A DNA stretch of 64,000 nt from an uncultured Armatimonadia bacterium (GTDB lineage Bacteria > Armatimonadota > Zipacnadia > CAVVLO01). The translations under genes and the position numbers were made by a program. Positions within the stretch are counted from its first letter, which is position 1, and each line of letters opens with the position of its first letter. Below are positions 9,589 to 19,887 of this stretch, piece by piece. The DNA lies in NCBI GenBank assembly GCA_963749155.1, contig CAVVLO010000001.1, forward strand, positions 512,001 through 576,000, written 5' to 3'. The notes below the pieces were generated by a model. The model worked only from the letters and a program-made list of their open reading frames with translations, was not told the origin of the DNA and made no database searches.

Positions 9589-12500
9589 TTGGCTGAGACC
9601 ACAAGCAAAGGCGCGGCGACGAATTTTGAGGCGCTGAGGGTCGGGCTGGCTTCGCCCGACATAATCAAGTCATGGTCGCGCGGCGAGGTCAAGAAGCCTG
9701 AAACCATCAACTACCGGACCTTCCGTCCGGAGCGCGATGGGTTGTTCTGCGAGAAGATATTTGGCCCAACGAAGGATTACGAGTGCTATTGCGGCAAGTA
9801 TAAGAAGCACAAGTTCCGTGGCATTATCTGCGACAAGTGCGGAGTGGAAGTTACCACCTCGCGGGTGCGGCGTCGGCGGATGGGCCATATCGAGCTTGCG
9901 GCGCCGGTGGCACATATCTGGTATCTGAAGGGCGTGCCCAGCCCGATTGCCTTGCTGCTGGACGTATCAGCGCGCGATCTGGAGAAGGTAGTCTACTTTG
10001 GCGCGAGTATTGTGACCCACCTGGACAGGGAAGCGCTCAATGCGATCTTCCCGCAGCTTAGCGCAGCGGTAGATGAGGAAGTCGAGAAGCTTAAAGGCCT
10101 GCTCGAGCAACGCGAGCAGAGGATGCTCGAAGAGATGGAGAACTTCCTCAGCGTGCGCGAAGACCTCGAGGGCGAGGACTTTGCGGAGCTGGCTAACGTT
10201 GTAGATGCCGAGGACGCAGGACTAATCGAAGCAGAAGTCGTCGTCGATGAGGAAGCAGAAGAGGAAGAAGAAGAAGAACTGGACCTGCATGAAGAGCCGG
10301 TGGCGGTCCTGCCGCGGAGCGTAGATGAAGAAGACGAAGATGAAGACTCTCCAATGCTCGGTGAGGAAGAGGGAGTCTTCGATACTTCGGTAGATGATTT
10401 CTTTGGGTCGCTGTCCCAGGATGACCTGCTGGATGACGACACCGTGCGCGAGGAAACCAGCAAGCGGCTGGATGATGAGCGGCGCGAAACCGAAGAAGAA
10501 ATTGACGGGCTGCGCGATGGGTTGGAACTGCTGGCCGAAATCCAGCTCAAGGATCTGCTGAACGAGGAAGACGTCCGCAAGCTGGATTCGGTGCTGGATG
10601 TCATCACCGAGCGGCTGGACAGAGATCCTGAGGCGTTGTTCTGCGCCAAGATGGGCGCGGAGGCGCTGCTCGATCTGCTTCACGAAGTGGATCTGGAGTC
10701 GCTGTCGCGCGAGCTTGACAAGGATGTTGACGAGACTTCCGGAGCCAAGCGGGTGCGGGCTATCAAGCGGTTGCAACTGGTGAACTCGCTACGCGATTCG
10801 CGCAACCGACCCGAATGGATGATTATGACGGTAATGCCTGTCATGCCGCCGGACCTGCGCCCGATGGTGCAGCTCGATGGTGGGCGGTTCGCAAGTTCGG
10901 ACCTGAACGATCTGTACAGGCGGATAATCAACCGCAACAACCGGCTGAAGCGCATTATCGAGATCCGGGCGCCCAGGTCGATTGTTAACCATGAGAAGCG
11001 GTTGCTGCAGGAAGCTGTAGATGCGCTGATAGACAACAGCCGCAGGTCGCGGCCAGTTACAGGGCCCAACAAGCGGGCGCTGAAGTCGCTTTCCGATATG
11101 CTGAAGGGCAAGGAAGGGCGCTTCCGCAAGAACCTGCTGGGCAAGCGCGTGGACTATTCGGGTCGGTCAGTTATCGTAGTCGGGCCGCACCTCAAGCTGC
11201 ATCAGTGCGGGCTGCCGAAGGATATGGCGCTGGAGCTTTTCAAGCCTTTCGTAATCAAGAAACTGGTAGAGCAGAATTTCACGACCAACATCAAGACGGC
11301 CAAGCGGATGATTGACCGGGGGCAGCCCGAGGTTTGGGACGCGCTCGAGGAGATCATTGAAGATCATCCCGTGTTGCTGAACCGCGCGCCTACGCTGCAC
11401 AGGCTGGGCATCCAGGCCTTCGAGCCGCAACTGGTCGAGGGCAAGGCTATCCAGGTCCACCCGCTGGTCTGCCATGGTTACAACGCAGACTTCGACGGCG
11501 ACCAGATGGCAGTGCACGTGCCGCTTGGGGCGGACGCGCAGGCCGAAGCGCGCATCCTGATGCAGGCTCGCGAGAATATGTTTGGCCCTGCAGGCGGCGC
11601 GCCAGAAGCTGCGCCTCTGTATGACATAGTGCTGGGCTGTTATTACATCACGCAGGAAAGCCAGCGGCAGAAGGACAAACCGAAACTTATGTCCAGCACG
11701 GAAGAGGCTGTACTTGCCTACGAGCTGGGCCATCTGGACGTACACGAATTCGTGCAGTGCCCGATTGAAGAGATCGAGATCAGCTTCAAAGACGGCCGGA
11801 AGAAATTTGCGCCTCGGCGCGAGGCTTTCTGGTCGATCCAGAGGGCTGGGACCGAACTTTTCGAGCAAGGGCTGCTGCGCGTTGGAGAAGAATACGAGAT
11901 AACGGTGGATCCGAAATCGGAGCCGACCGAATATGAGGCGCTGGGCATCTACGGCAAGGTTTCAGAGATGGCCGACGAGGTGCGCCTGGCGCTCACGACC
12001 GAAGTAAGCAGCGAGCTGGTTAAGGCCGACCCGGTGAAGCTCGTGGGCCAGACTCTGGCCGACGATTACAAGGACGCAGAGGGTGAGACGGTCTTTGTTT
12101 CAGGCACGGTGCTGGATGAAGAGACCGCGCCCAAGCTTGTCGAGCTGGTAGGCTCTCGCAAAAAAGTATCGGTCCGCCGGACGACCCAGGCTTATAACGA
12201 AGAGCAGCACCGCAGCGAAAGGTGCAGACTGAAGCTGCAGCGCACAATTGACGAGTTGTTCCGCAAGGAGCTGCTGCCGGAGAAGGGCAAGGCGAATATC
12301 AAGCTGGTAACCCAGCCCCAGGTCACGACAACTGGCCGGGTGCTGTTCAACCGGCTGCTGCCACTGTGCCTCAGGTTCAAAGACAAGCCGGCAGACAAGA
12401 AGCTGCTCTCGGACCTGACAAAAGAATGCCACAGCATCTTCGGAGTACCTCGCACTGCCGCGATGCTGGACGACATAAAGGACGCGGGGCTAAAGTTCGC

Positions 12501-14862
12501 GACGACCGCGGGGCTATCGATCTCGATGGCGGATATGTCGATCGCTTCCGAGCGCGACGAGATCATCGAGCGCACGCAGAAGGAAGTTGACAAGATCAAC
12601 CGCGACTATCGCCGCAGAATCATCAGCGATGGTGAGCGTCAACTGCGCGTGCTGAACCTGTGGCTCAAGGCGCGTAACCAGGTCGCAGACGACATTATGC
12701 AAAAGGTCAGCAAGTTCAATCCGCTGTACCTGATGCTTTCATCCGGCGCCCGAGGCAACAAGAACCAGCTTACGCAGCTCGCCGGGATGCGCGGTCTGAT
12801 GTCCGACCCGCGCGGCAATTTCATTGAGGACTTGCCGGTAAAATCGAACTTCCACGAAGGGCTTGGACTGCTTGAGTACTTCGTGTCAACTCACGGAGCG
12901 CGCAAGGGTGTAGCCGACACGGCGCTTCGCACAGCGGACGCAGGTTACCTGACGCGGAAGCTCGTAGACGTTGCGCAGGATGTAATGGTGCGCGAGCATG
13001 ATTGCGGCACCGTAAATGGCTTCACCGTAGAGCCTATCTTCGAGGAAGATGTCCACTGCTCGCAGTGCGGGACCCTCGACCTGAAGCGGATCAGCAATGA
13101 GGAAGGGCATATCATATGCCAATCCTGCGGAGCTGACCTGGGCGAACACGACGACGACAAGATCGAAGAGCTGGAAGAGCGGCTGTTCGGTTGCGTGGCG
13201 GCAGAAGATATAGTTCATCCTGAAACAGGCGAAGTGCTTGTCGAGCGCAACAAGATCATCTGGGAAGATGACGTTAAGGTTGTCGTGGACTCGGGCCTGG
13301 TTCAGGTAAAAGTGCGTTCGCCACTTACCTGTGAAACTACTGCAGGGGTTTGCACCTTGTGTTACGGACTGGACCTTTCGAGGCGCCAGCTTGTGCGCGA
13401 GGGCGAAGCAGTTGGTATCGTAGCGGCCGAGTCCATCGGCGAGCCAGGCACGCAGCTCACACTGCGCACCTTCCATACTGGTGGCGTCGCAGAGCAGTAT
13501 ATTACTGGTGTAGCGGACGTCCGGGGCAGAGTGCAGCAGATTTTGCGGCAGATCCGAGAGGATATGGAAGAGACCTCGGCGGGTACCAACCGCGAACAGC
13601 GCAGCACCTATCAGCGGGTGGTAAAGGTACTGGAGAACCCAGTTGGCGGCCTGCTGCGAATCATCGAGCTGTTCGAAGCGCGCAAGCCGAAGGGCCAGGC
13701 TATCATCTGCGACCTGGATGGTTTTATCGAGGACATCGTGCCGGCCGGCGCTTATCGTACAGTAACGCTGCGTTCGATACTCGAGGTTGCGCCAGAGCTT
13801 TCTGAACTGGCCAAGGGCGAGCGGCTCTGCGAGGATGCAGTGTCGCCGGTTAATGGCAAGACGATAATGAAGGTTGGCGACAAGCTGACCGATTCCAATA
13901 TCTTCTCGCTGATCACGGCAGGCGTGAAGAACGTAACCATCAGGAAGGAATATATCGTGCCGTTCCGAGGCAAACTGCAGGTAGTCAAGGGGGAGAAGGT
14001 CTCTGCGGGTACACGTATTACGCAAGGGCCACTGGAGCCCCGGATGCTGCTGAAGTTGCGGGGCCTGGACGGCGTGAGGGCTTATCTCGTGCGCGAAATC
14101 CAGGCGGTGTATCGCAGCTATAACATCCGCATCAATGACAAACATCTCGAATGCGTCATCAGGCAGATGCTGAAGAAGCGCAAGGTAGTCGAGCGGGGTG
14201 GCACACGCTTCCTGCCTGGCGAGCGACTGGACCAGTGGGTGCTCGAAGGCGAGAACCAGTCGATGCGCGAGCAGGGATTGCACGAAGCCACAGCCGAGTT
14301 CCAGTTGATGGGAATTACGGACGCCGCGCTGGCAAGTGACTCGTTCCTGTCGGCGGCTTCCTTCCAGAAGACGACGAAGGTGCTGACGGATGCGGCGCTT
14401 GCGGCAAGAAGGGATACACTGGAAGGGCTGAAGGAGAACGTCATAATCGGCCGGCTCATACCGGCTGGGACGGGCGGGAAGCAGTATAAGGGGATTAAGA
14501 CGCGCAGGGCGGACGGAGTCGAGGAAATACCGGCCGATCTGCTGCGCGAGCCGCTTGTCGAGACCAGCGAGCTTGAAGAGCTTGAGAAGCTAATGGTGGG
14601 CGCTACCGGCAGCGAGGAGATCGCTCGGGAAGTGCTTGGAGAAGGCTTCGAAGGTGATGACGGCGAAGAGCTGGATCTCGATGCGCTCGGACTTAAGGCT
14701 CTGGACGAAGACGAGCTGCCGGAAAATGAGGCAGATGACCTGCTTGGGGAGTTCCATGCAGTCGCTGAAGAGGAAGAAGAAGAGCTTGATTTGGAGCTTG
14801 GAGCAAGCGGCGAAACGGAAGAAGAAGAGCCAGAGCAGGAAGAAGGCCTAATCGAAGAGTAG
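9589..14862 (+). CDS. rpoC: RNA polymerase beta' subunit with large insertions and an acidic tail
   Basis: [10 protein letters not shown]-terminal Zn cysteines, [39 protein letters not shown]; 1757 aa. Confidence 0.99.
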
Positions 14863-14968: not shown

Positions 14969-15130
14969 CCGCTGTTCTACGGCCTGAGTAGCTTGTGGAA
15001 CCGAGTGGAAGGAGACCCGTCATTGCAGTTGAGGGCCACTCAAACTGGTAGCAGTCCAGATCCCTGAGAAGGGGATAGGGCAGAATGCGCCGTTTGAGGC
15101 CCCCTGCGAAGGCGGGGGGTCTTTATTTTG
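14969..15130 (+). promoter_or_regulatory. Candidate attenuator leader upstream of rpsL
   Basis: Terminator hairpin 15096-15123 plus U-rich tail; competing helices 15033-15045/15092-15102 and 15003-15008/15036-15041. Confidence 0.6.
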
Positions 15131-15151
15131 AGTAGCACCGGAGGGTACTTG

Positions 15152-15568
15152 ATGCCAACTATTGGGCAGCTAGTTCGCAAGCCCAGGCGTACGCCGGCGA
15201 AGAAAATACGGAACAAGGCACTGTTGATTCGGTTCAACTCTTTGAAGAACCGGTCGGCGCTAACCGAGGGCGCACCGCAGAAGCGCGGAGTGTGCACGAA
15301 GGTGTGGGCAGACAAGCCCAAAAAGCCGAACTCGGCTTTGCGGAAGCTGGCCCGCGTGCGGCTGACGAACCGGGAAGAGGCAACCGCCTATATCCCCGGT
15401 ATCGGGCACAACCTGCAGGAGCACTCGGTAGTGCTTATCCGCGGCGGGCGCGTCAAGGACCTGAACTCGGTCAAATATCACATCGTGCGGGGCGTGCTGG
15501 ATGCGGCTGGGGTAAACAACCGCAAGCGCGGACGTTCGAAGTACGGCACCAAGAGACCCAAGGCATAA
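15152..15568 (+). CDS. rpsL: 30S ribosomal protein uS12
   Basis: [39 protein letters not shown]. Confidence 0.98.
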
Positions 15569-15637: not shown

Positions 15638-16108
15638 GTGTCTCGCAGGGCTCCAGCGGAACGTAGAGAGGTAGCTCCTGATCCGGTATACGGCAGCAGG
15701 ATGCTTTCCAAGATGATTAACTACCTGATGGAAGACGGCAAAAAGAGCAAGGCCGAGAAGATCGTCTACACGGCCTTTGAGATCATGGCGCAGCGCACCA
15801 AGAGCAATCCGCTCGAGGTATTCAGCAAGGCCATGCGCAACTTGATGCCGACCCTCGAGGTGCGCTCCAGGCGCGTCGGAGGACAGAGCTATCAGGTGCC
15901 AGTAGAAGTACGTCCCTCGCGCAAACTGTGCCTGGCCACTCGGTGGCTGCTTAACGCAGCCCGCGCCCGGAAGGGCAGGCCGATGGCAGAGAAGCTCGCG
16001 ATGGAATTGATGGACGCGGCGAACGGCGCCGGAGAAGCAATGAAGAAGCGTGAAGACACGCACCGGATGGCTGAATCGAACCGCGCCTTTGCGCATTATC
16101 GGTGGTAA
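15638..16108 (+). CDS. rpsG: 30S ribosomal protein uS7
   Basis: [36 protein letters not shown]. Confidence 0.98.
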
Positions 16109-16165: not shown

Positions 16166-18274
16166 ATGAGCACCAATAGTCGGACAAAAACGAGTACCAG
16201 GCGAACTGACGAGATGTCACGGGAAGTAGAGCTAGGCAAGGTCAGAAATATCGGAATCGCCGCGCATATTGACGCGGGGAAGACGACAACGACTGAGCGT
16301 ATCCTCTTCTACACCGGCAAGGCACATCGTATCGGTGAGGTAGATGACGGCACCGCGACCATGGATTACATGGCGCAGGAGCAGGAACGCGGCATTACGA
16401 TTACCTCCGCGGCAACCACCACAGAGTGGCGTGATTGCCAGGTCAATATAATAGACACTCCAGGCCACGTAGATTTCACCCTCGAGGTCGAGCGCGCACT
16501 GCGCGTGCTGGACGGGATGGTTGCTGTCTTCTGCGCGGTCGGCGGAGTACAACCCCAGTCCGAGACAGTATGGCGGCAGGCCAACAAGTATCGCGTGCCA
16601 CGCATCGCCTACATCAACAAGATGGACCGGACAGGGGCAGATTTCCACGAAGTTTTGCACCAGATGCGCGACAGGCTGCAGGCTAACGCAGTAGCCATCC
16701 AGGTGCCAATCGGCGAGGAAGAAACCTTTCTTGGGATGATTGACCTCGTCGAAATGCGGGCGCATATCTACCTCGACGACCTTGGGACCAAGCGTAGCAA
16801 CGAGGAGATCCCTCAGGATATGCTTATGTTCGCGGAAGCATACCGCGAAGCGCTCGTTGACAAGCTCTCAGAAATTGACGAAGACATCCTGACCAAGTAT
16901 GTACAAGGCGAAGAGATCTCGGCGGACGACCTTAAATCAGCCATCAGGAAAGGCGTGCTGGCCAATGTGCTAGTGCCCGTACTGTGCGGTACCTCCCTGA
17001 AGAATAAAGGCGTCCAGCCAGTCCTCGATGCAATCGTAGATTATCTCCCCTCTCCTGAAGATGTGCTTCCAGTCACTGGACAGCATCCTGTGACGGGGGA
17101 AGAAGTCATACGCGAAGCTGACGATGAGGCGCCTTTCTCGGGGCTCATTTTCAAGCTGCTTACTGACGAATATGTCGGTCGCCTGGCTTTCGTACGCACT
17201 TATTCGGGCGTGCTGAAAAAGGGTTCGGCCGTTCACAATCCGCGCACTGGCAAGATGGAGCGCGTAGGCCGGTTGCTGCGGATGCATGCCAACCGGCGCG
17301 AGGATATCGAAGCAGCCTATACTGGCGACATTGTCGCGGTGCTGGGTTTCAACGAGATCGCAACGGGCGACACAGTCTGCGAGCGGAATCATCCTGTCTT
17401 GCTCGAGCAGATGAGCTTCCCCGAGCCGGTCATCAGTCAGGCCATCGAGCCAAAGACCAAGGCCGACCTGGACAAGCTGATGAACGCGCTCGAGAAACTG
17501 TCAGCCGAGGATCCGAGCTTCAGGTTCGGGGTAGATTCGGAGACAGGCCAGCTCGTGATGTCGGGCATGGGCGAGCTGCACCTTGAGATCATGCATGACC
17601 GCCTGGTGCGCGAGTATGCGGTGGCCGCAAGTGTCGGCAAGCCGCAGGTGGCGTATCGGGAGACCGTGTCACGGACCGCGACGGTGGAAGAGCGTTATGT
17701 TAAGCAGACCGGCGGGCGGGGTATGTTCGCCCAGGTCGAGCTGAAGCTGGAACCGAAGGCCGACGGTGGCTTCGAGTTCGTGAGCGCAATCACCGGTGGG
17801 GCCATCCCGAGGGAATATATCGCTCCGGTCGAGGCTGGCATTCGCGAAGGCCTGGCCAGCGGCGTGCTGGGCGGCTATCCAGTCATCAACGTGAAAGCGA
17901 CGCTGATGGACGGGCGCATCCACGAAGTGGACTCGAACGAGATGGCCTTCCGCATCTGCGCCACTATCGCGACAAAGGAAGCTTTGCGGAAAGCAGGTTC
18001 CATACTGCTAGAGCCGCTGATGAGTCTGGAGATTGTAGGGCCCGAGGAGTTCCTGGGCGAGGTAATCGCCGACTTGAACTCGAGACGGGCGGAAATCCAG
18101 GGTATGGAACAGGGCAGTGGTGGCCAGCGCATCGTAAAGGCCGTCGCTCCGCTGTCCGAGATGTTTGGATATGCGACCGACTTGCGGAGCCGTACGCAGG
18201 GCAGGGCAACGTTCACAATGACGCCCTCGCACTACGCTCCGGTGCCTCATAACCTACTTGACAAGCTGGTCTAG
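16166..18274 (+). CDS. fusA: Elongation factor G (str-operon copy; alternative start 16214)
   Basis: [34 protein letters not shown]. Confidence 0.98.
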
Positions 18275-18306: not shown

Positions 18307-19509
<1,203 letters not shown>

Positions 19510-19569: not shown

Positions 19570-19887
19570 ATGGCGATAGCACGCAAGATGCGTATAAAGC
19601 TGCGGAGTTTCGACCATAAGCTACTTGATCAGTCAGCGCAGAAGATCGTGGCTGCGGCGACAGAGTCGGGAGCAAGGGTGGCAGGACCAGTGCCGCTGCC
19701 CACCGAGAAGCGCGTGTATTGCATCGTGCGGCCGACGGCGCTTGGACGCAGCGAACGCAGCATGGAGCATTACGAACTGCGCACTCACAAGCGGCTGGTT
19801 GACATCATCGAGCCGACGCAGCAGACAATCGAGTCGCTTATGCGGCTGGAGCTGCCTGGCAGCGTTGAGATCGAGATCAAGCAGTAA
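19570..19887 (+). CDS. rpsJ: 30S ribosomal protein uS10
   Basis: RIKLRSFDH, GPVPLPT, RTHKRLVDI. Confidence 0.96.
   Translation: MAIARKMRIKLRSFDHKLLDQSAQKIVAAATESGARVAGPVPLPTEKRVYCIVRPTALGRSERSMEHYELRTHKRLVDIIEPTQQTIESLMRLELPGSVEIEIKQ

Follow-up and report, generated by a model that had tools for sequence, protein, structure and literature searches.

How can a bacterial class live with a ribosomal protein uS12 that lacks the near-universal Pro90-Gly91 pair of the decoding site? This question is raised by rpsL, which was located by open reading frame (ORF) translation and family models at 15152..15568 (+ strand) of the window, i.e., the whole stretch of 64,000 nucleotides that was analyzed. 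The single-copy gene encodes a uS12 of 138 amino acids, a long form with a 14-residue N-terminal insertion. The protein scored 188.4 bits against the curated bacterial S12 model TIGR00981 (cut-off 112.95), residues 1-138 lying on profile positions 1-124, and 115.7 bits against PF00164 (cut-off 22.3). PF00164 had one match in the whole genome (G000; 4.17 Mb in 7 contigs, completeness score 100%, contamination 5.87%), indicating that rpsL is the sole S12 gene. Downstream on the + strand, rpsG (15638-16108), fusA (16166-18274), tuf (18307-19509), and rpsJ (19570-19887) all exceeded their curated NCBIfam cut-offs, and a long + strand ORF of 1757 residues upstream (9589..14862) was read from its translation as rpoC by sequence only. 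With this putative rpoC included, the order rpoC-rpsL-rpsG-fusA-tuf-rpsJ is an ordinary str-operon setting. The PKKPNSA loop with Lys42-Lys43 and the Lys87-Asp88 pair were also present, whereas the near-universal Pro90-Gly91-Val-Arg93 motif, which is no formal part of the models, was replaced by Asn-Ser-Val-Lys. Since the curated model was passed, the assignment to bacterial uS12 stands despite the missing Pro-Gly motif.

Other features were observed around rpsL. A G+C-rich hairpin followed by TCTTTATTTT (15099-15131) lies after the upstream ORF, ~20 bases ahead of the start of rpsL, and looks like a terminator or attenuator. The RpoC-like ORF has a strongly acidic insertion with runs of E and D at approximately residues 191-265 (window 10159-10383), and its C-terminal tail is acidic as well. 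EF-Tu contains a Cys-rich stretch of 14 residues, including four Cys, at residues 179-192 (window 18841-18882). This stretch could be a metal-binding knuckle; E. coli EF-Tu presumably has a Cys-free helix region at this place.

Residues were numbered by alignment of uS12 with the annotated E. coli rpsL. The loop facing helix 44 (h44) reads D-L-N-S-V-K-Y instead of the canonical D-L-P-G-V-R-Y (15458..15478, + strand), the codons GAC CTG AAC TCG GTC AAA TAT encoding Asp103, Leu104, Asn105, Ser106, Val107, Lys108, and Tyr109. The span marked originally, 15449-15483, extends from Arg100 to Ile111. Within the loop, AAC TCG (15464..15469, +) encodes Asn105-Ser106, which correspond to Pro90-Gly91 of mature E. 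coli uS12 (P91 and G92 in gene numbering), and AAA (15473..15475, +) encodes Lys108, corresponding to mature Arg93 (gene R94). Lys102-Asp103 (15455..15460, +) are the equivalents of E. coli Lys87 and Asp88, the latter being the RimO target, and both were kept. Loop 1 (15302..15334, +; GTG TGG GCA GAC AAG CCC AAA AAG CCG AAC TCG) also departs from VYTTTPKKPNS. Here, Trp52 corresponds to mature Tyr37 (gene Y38), and Ala53, Asp54, and Lys55 to mature Thr38, Thr39, and Thr40 (gene T39, T40, and T41); Trp52 and Ala53 are class traits, and Asp54-Lys55 are restricted to G000 and its nearest relatives. Lys57-Lys58 (E. coli K42 and K43) were intact. At the sites used in resistance panels, the gene-numbered residues are thus K43, R86, K88, N91, and S92. 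These translations and alignments bore out the original prediction that KDLNSVKY replaces the Pro90-Gly91 loop and that loop 1 is changed too. Hereafter, mature E. coli numbering is used, and residues 90-91 are abbreviated as NS, NT, PA, PS, AG, or PG, with residue 93 appended where needed.

The changes had been described as multi-base and in frame, with no single-base error, and this held for the codons and for the unchanged letters of independent contigs. Positions 15464-15469 were covered by contigs of four runs from four studies (three of DNA and one of an RNA library), and among the contigs listed no letter differed there; the comparison used contigs rather than raw reads, and the source sample itself may be among these runs. 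The whole stretch compared around rpsL was spanned by one contig of 2074 bases. In the RNA-library contig X16, from a ~96%-identical relative, synonymous changes at 15463, 15472, 15475, and 15481 flanked an unchanged AAC TCG, although such a library is no proof of transcription. We weighed these data against an artefact, which could be an error of sequencing or assembly, a chimeric contig, a pseudogene, or an extra copy in a genome that also has a canonical rpsL. Chimeras do occur among assembled S12 genes: the database protein P0004 was identical to a near relative at 92/92 positions through residue 92 and then at 32/46, with PGVRY, and in L301, a contig of 1402 bases, an N-terminal half of the short form is followed by a C-terminal half with NS. 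Loose ends reading CCGGGTGT... also began at 15463 in several runs. However, 35 genomes spread over 11 families have NS or NT, encoded by varying synonymous codons, 61 metagenome stretches carried the motif in frame in S12, and no long contig among those listed from the four studies had a change at either codon. Furthermore, the frame is intact, the curated model was passed, and the genome scored as 100% complete holds one S12 gene, so that the canonical second rpsL, named originally as a possible refutation, is absent. An artefact therefore has practically no chance of being the explanation; Asn-Ser was confirmed as real, being neither an error nor a spare copy.

P0004, the one close relative with PGVRY, was considered as a canonical allele and rejected as a mosaic gene. 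Its NS-type N-terminus is joined to a PG C-terminus and L301 shows the reverse, both on short contigs. In both, the lineage switches between loop 1 and the C-terminal loop, in or beside a highly conserved stretch of 15 residues, and they are most likely assembly chimeras. Short metagenome contigs can thus yield chimeric S12 genes in which the NS state is masked or falsely present, which is a warning for surveys.

The distribution of the loop was analyzed in G000 and its 40 nearest genomes, all of the same class and representing 13 families, with none of the 40 in the order or family of G000. Residues 90-91 were NS in 33 of the 41 genomes, NT in two (G002 and G010), PA in five (all four of genus g13 and G034), and PG in one, G005, which carries Lys93 and has a divergent S12 with changes at many positions that are fixed elsewhere. 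Thus, the altered loop is no peculiarity of G000 but is shared by its class. In a phylum-wide draw of 300 genomes, an S12 match was obtained in 287/301 (G000 included), and S12 was read in 67 genomes of 37 other families. Asn90 was found in 0/67 of these out-of-class genomes. In the 66 that could be read through residue 93 (the 67th sequence, L190, ends right after Pro90), 55 were PG-R, seven PG-K (families f16, f47, and f48), one PA-K (G127), one PS-K (G297), and two AG-R (G041 and G070). The nearest database proteins and one public NS locus bear NCBI names of Armatimonadota. When 241 million metagenome records were scanned for KDLN[S/T]VKYH, 62 stretches matched, of which 61 were S12 in frame and one was a chance non-coding match; loop 1 was visible in 60 of the S12 stretches and was the class-type V-W loop in 59, the exception being L301. 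The possibility raised at the outset that the variant is common therefore applied within the lineage, but not outside it (0/67 phylum genomes; class-type loop 1 in 59/60 metagenome matches). From these sequences, Asn90-Ser91 is best read as an old, inherited, class-wide trait and no fresh mutation.

Position 91 varied more widely. A search for related loci was read in the best 80 of 596 relatives, mostly Bacillota with one NS locus, a biased sample that gives no bacteria-wide frequency; 78 of the 80 were readable, and ten of them were non-PG, namely PSVKY or PAVKY in Chloroflexota, AGVRY in Saccharibacillus and Lysinibacillus, IGVRY in an uncultured Bacilli genome, and the single NS. Similarly, 121 database proteins (the query and its 120 nearest homologues) included 18 with PSVK, two with PAVK, one with PSVR, and one with SGVR. 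Because of these exceptions, Gly91 appears less frozen in Terrabacteria-type S12 than model organisms suggest, and Asn at position 90 is, on these samples, the unusual part of the loop.

Single members of the sampled lineages showed further departures. In the public Limnocylindria metagenome-assembled genome locus L103, S12 reads GGRVPDLPAVKY, in which Pro stands in place of Lys87 and both G91A and R93K are present. In G005 (family f6; L128/L244 and L217), normally fixed S12 positions are changed (GHQLQEHH and LIQGGRTKDLPGVKYQ), loop 1 reads EVMVRG, and the helix-14 tetraloop of 16S rRNA is ACAA for UACG. In G004 (family f5; L012), S12 reads PTKPNSA, so that the classic streptomycin-resistance substitution, Lys42-to-Thr, occurs here naturally on top of NS-K.

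Next, residues that change together with the loop were analyzed in an alignment of 108 sequences (107 genomes and E. coli). Asn90 was accompanied by Trp37 in 35/35, Lys93 in 35/35, Ala38 in 89%, and Phe58 in 80% (Phe58 is absent in G000), counts that are inflated by shared descent and do not represent independent events, since at most a few origins are sampled: the class, possibly f44 and f50, and Chloroflexota. Within the phylum, every non-Gly residue 91 was accompanied by Lys93. Trp37 was also found beside PG in f29 and f45, and Lys93 beside PG in f16, f47, f48, and G005, indicating that both can precede the loss of Pro-Gly. In the 121 database proteins, Lys93 was present in 61 of the 62 with a non-Gly residue 91, and Arg93 in all 59 with Gly91. 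The one exception, P0078, has PS with Arg93, so Lys93 is no absolute requirement for a non-Gly residue 91. Living relatives show PG-R, PG-K, PA-K, PS-K, and NS-K. The codon of Asn90 was AAC in 35/35, and that of Ser91 was TCG, TCC, or TCA, which points to synonymous change under a fixed residue; TCN is one step from GCN (Ala) and GCN one step from GGN (Gly), and AAC is two steps from CCN. The co-substitution counts, extant intermediates, and codons fit an order in which Arg93-to-Lys and Tyr37-to-Trp would have come first, Gly91-to-Ala or -Ser would have followed on this Lys93/Trp37 background, and Pro90-to-Asn would have come last.

The direction of change within the class was examined with two trees. 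In the 16S tree of 22 sequences, the PA genus g13 was sister to the NS genus g7 (support 99), within nodes of 86 and 99 that otherwise contained NS. In the tree of S7 and the EF-G N-terminus (55 taxa and 418 columns, with G013, G035, and G111 left out for short data), g13 (100) was again sister to g7 (100) at 94, within an NS/NT clade at 100. Within the well-supported clade, an NS ancestor requires two changes to PA (g13 and G034), and a PA ancestor requires four gains of NS. Loop 1 and the C-terminus of g13 S12 resemble those of its NS neighbours and thus do not point to a gene of foreign origin. The likeliest reading of g13 on these trees is therefore that Asn-Ser reverted to Pro-Ala, which would make the two states near-interchangeable on the class background. 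Several separate gains of NS, starting from PA, would be less parsimonious, although a return from AAC to CCN takes two base changes. The deep nodes were weak (34-60 in the 16S tree and 43-59 in the S7 and EF-G tree), so the early order of steps and the sister status of the out-of-class Lys93 families stay tentative; the latter stood beside or inside the class at support 43-45, and G005 (PG-K) paired with G000 at 88, both on long branches. The RpoC C-terminus was dropped as a third marker, as it adjoined rpsL in 31/58 loci. The 16S of G012 grouped with the PG outgroup (40 and 57) and has the outgroup's h44 sequence, yet its 351-357 stretch shows the class signature; this rRNA may be an assembly chimera. 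In g13 (G014, G026, and G019; L202, L205, and L206), covarying C1404U/G1497A was observed in an otherwise invariant P-site/decoding region of 16S rRNA.

We then looked for compensation in 16S rRNA and RimO. The 16S alignment comprised both G000 copies (L191 and L192; G000:C2:764804-766336 and 1395033-1396565, outside the window), 17 further class genomes, four PG-bearing phylum genomes, and E. coli. Positions 8-22 (the U13-U14 area), 505-540 (the 530 loop), 883-920, 1395-1408, and 1492-1505 were canonical in the NS genomes. At 1409-1491, most relatives had A-U, whether NS or PG. The 1410-1490 pair, which adjoins Pro90, was A-U in G000 and G-C in most NS and PG relatives, and it was rejected as a compensating change because NS and PG lineages do not differ there. 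Thus, no decoding-centre compensation was found in the aligned class 16S sequences, contrary to the changes in h18, h27, and h44 that the original prediction had suggested looking for: the top of h44, h18, and h27 were all canonical. The expectation of compensating changes held for the protein (Lys93 and Trp37 in 35/35, Ala38 in 89%), but not for the decoding centre of the rRNA. RimO was present, with a gene at G000:C2:193907-195214 that scored 444 bits against TIGR01125 (cut-off 357), and Asp88 was kept. Because the 16S decoding core is canonical and RimO is present, any visible compensation lies within uS12.

RimO deserves attention in its own right, since the changed residues stand two and three positions past the modified Asp. 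The loop might have co-evolved with the methylthio modification of Asp88 in such a way that altered neighbours change or abolish recognition by RimO. In line with this, all four f5 genomes (G004, G011, G013, and G015; 90-98% complete) had only paralogue-level best matches of 259-283 bits against the cut-off of 357 and yet kept Asp88 and NS. RimO may have been lost in family f5, judging from these scores. However, RimO exceeded the cut-off in G000 and altogether in 34/41 class genomes, with NS, NT, PA, and PG members among them, and Asp88 was kept in every sequence examined. Moreover, of the seven genomes below the cut-off, the remaining three were two with contig-end fragments (G029 and G036) and G010, which is 83% complete. 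Both Asp88 and a RimO gene, as expected for a RimO-modified uS12, are thus present in G000 on a gene-level reading, and a loop shaped by RimO recognition seems very unlikely.

Taken together, these results argue for a working, single-copy uS12 from an uncultured Armatimonadota class, whose h44-packing loop was probably rebuilt stepwise and anciently and compensated inside the protein, NS being nearly equivalent to PA or PG in its own background. We consider this the likely explanation. The side chain of Asn has approximately the volume of Pro and therefore would not push on h44 as the bulky streptomycin-dependent substitutions do. Ser91 and Lys93 would re-pack the loop together with Trp37 and Ala38, which presumably lie on the strand neighbouring the Pro-Gly loop, after which the ribosome would decode normally. 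The decoding-centre rRNA would have stayed unchanged, with compensation confined to the protein. Near-equivalence of NS with PA or PG on this background would also explain the switching back in g13. The order of steps, the re-packing, and the near-normal accuracy are what we infer from sequence comparison.

Compensation confined to uS12 may, nevertheless, be too narrow a reading, as the class 16S rRNA differs at conserved positions (59, 330, 351, 352, 357 with 54, 962/973, 1417, and 1425) whose changes are possibly compensatory. The positions at which the class differed from all five PG references were 59, 69, 330, 351, 352, 962/973, 1417, and 1425. In particular, the near-universal GGAGGCAGCAG (E. 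coli 347-357) is GGAGTTAGCAT in the class, through G351U, C352U, and G357U, together with A59G. Of 24 class genomes read at this site, 23 have GGAGTTAGCAT, whatever residue 90 was (G034 has C at 351), and it was absent from five PG-bearing phylum genomes and E. coli. The Rfam structure line places 351-353 in the unpaired stretch that joins helices 14 and 5, and it shows that C54A compensates for G357U. In the two out-of-class Lys93 genomes that were read, G297 and G118, G351 and C352 were canonical with A353U, which is a common variant allowed for by degenerate 341F primers. By our reckoning, GGAGTTAGCAT would mismatch common 341F-type primers, and amplicon surveys may therefore under-count the class. 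These class-specific changes near helices 14 and 5 are a lead, confounded with phylogeny.

On this lead, the class might run a re-tuned tRNA selection in which the uS12 loop (Asn90, Ser91, Lys93, Trp37, and Ala38) is coordinated with G351U, C352U, A59G, and the 54-357 pair of 16S rRNA. The helix 14/helix 5 region is part of bridge B8, and we take it to be on the EF-Tu docking side of the shoulder. Growth of E. coli P90R at 30 °C no longer required streptomycin when the helix 14 loop was mutated (345-346, bridge B8; PMC3082907). If coordination of this kind were true, the class would correspond to a laboratory streptomycin-dependent mutant plus suppressor that arose in nature and is fully compensated; both its accuracy set-point and its response to aminoglycosides would be its own. 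We regard it as quite unlikely and continue with compensation inside the protein as the preferred reading.

The usual streptomycin contacts are Lys42, Lys87, and 16S U14, 526-527, and 913-915, and all of them are canonical in G000. This bears on whether NS-K may instead have been fixed as a restrictive, hyper-accurate state that makes the class intrinsically insensitive to streptomycin-type aminoglycosides from neighbours in soil, sediment, or sludge. Pro90 and Gly91 are indeed classic sites of streptomycin resistance or dependence, as originally stated and as reported for laboratory mutants in the available parts of two studies (PMC3884664; PMC3082907). Natural resistance alleles of rpsL, 43R and 88R, are also fixed in whole classes elsewhere, according to the available text of a recent screen (bioRxiv 10.64898/2026.06.09.731231). 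In addition, G004 carries the Lys42-to-Thr change, and the runs containing this DNA are metagenomes whose labels name wastewater, sediment, digester, sludge, soil, and cave. Nevertheless, beyond the canonical contacts, a substitution at Pro90/Gly91 is present here, but Asn and Ser are outside the eight curated resistance substitutions in the text available (43R/T/N, 86C, 88R/E, 91L, and 92D; bioRxiv 10.64898/2026.06.09.731231). One genus returned to Pro-Ala without leaving the sampled range of habitats, and no cultured member of the class was found. Fixation for intrinsic resistance is thus possible but unlikely, and a compensated, near-equivalent loop is still the reading that we prefer.

How substitutions at residue 90 act is known in part from laboratory mutants. 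Pro90 packs against h44 near C1490 and A1492 (PMC3884664; PMC3082907), and bulky side chains at residue 90 distort A1491-A1493 and the 1410-1415 register, so that the ternary complex stalls before its GTPase is activated; the defect is reversed by streptomycin or by C1490U, and the latter suppresses P90L dependence in Thermus (PMC3884664). In Thermus, small side chains at this position give a milder, resistant phenotype, and bulky ones collide with h44 (PMC3884664). The mutants named there are P90R/L and G91D in E. coli and, in Thermus thermophilus, P90L/W/R/E/M as streptomycin-dependent and P90G/A/C as streptomycin-resistant (PMC3884664; PMC3082907). The class uS12 resembles these mutants in that the same two residues of the same h44-packing loop are affected. 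However, the laboratory mutants are single steps in a wild-type background with a fitness cost, whereas in the class both residues, Arg93, and Tyr37/Thr38 are changed and fixed class-wide. Neither Asn nor Ser occurs in this set of named substitutions (PMC3884664; PMC3082907), and position 1490, the site of the rRNA suppressor, is not specifically changed in the class 16S. Pro90 and Gly91 are among the textbook "untouchable" residues of the decoding site, where substitutions in laboratory organisms bring streptomycin resistance or dependence and alter accuracy, yet a whole bacterial class lives without them. The natural series of PG-R, PG-K, PA/PS-K, and NS-K, together with one reverted genus, offers a means of asking which changes make others tolerable, i.e., of studying epistasis at the decoding site.

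Clade-wide natural variants provide the closer comparison. In the text available of the natural-allele screen, 88R occurred in 70/70 Planctomycetia screened, and 43R and 88R in Sphingomonadales, Rickettsiales, and Coriobacteriia; its panel covered 43R/T/N, 86C, 88R/E, 91L, and 92D only, and the string "Armatimonad-" is absent from its main text (bioRxiv 10.64898/2026.06.09.731231). Fixed-list screens for "intrinsic" rpsL resistance therefore miss lineages such as the NS class. As in the class uS12, a normally frozen decoding-site residue is replaced clade-wide in these lineages, but they are hit at Lys42 and Lys87, both of which are intact in G000. The Chloroflexota uS12 with PSVKY or PAVKY, found in 5/80 loci (best 80 of 596; titles Chloroflexia, Limnocylindrales, Anaerolineaceae, and Limnocylindria), shares the changes of Gly91 and Arg93 with the class, but unlike the class keeps Pro90 and a canonical loop 1 (VRTMT). 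No published description of an Asn90-Ser91 uS12 was found in the literature searched. Thus, as far as the sources available reach, clade-wide natural variants of uS12 are already known for Lys42 and Lys87, and the Asn90-Ser91 state appears to be new.
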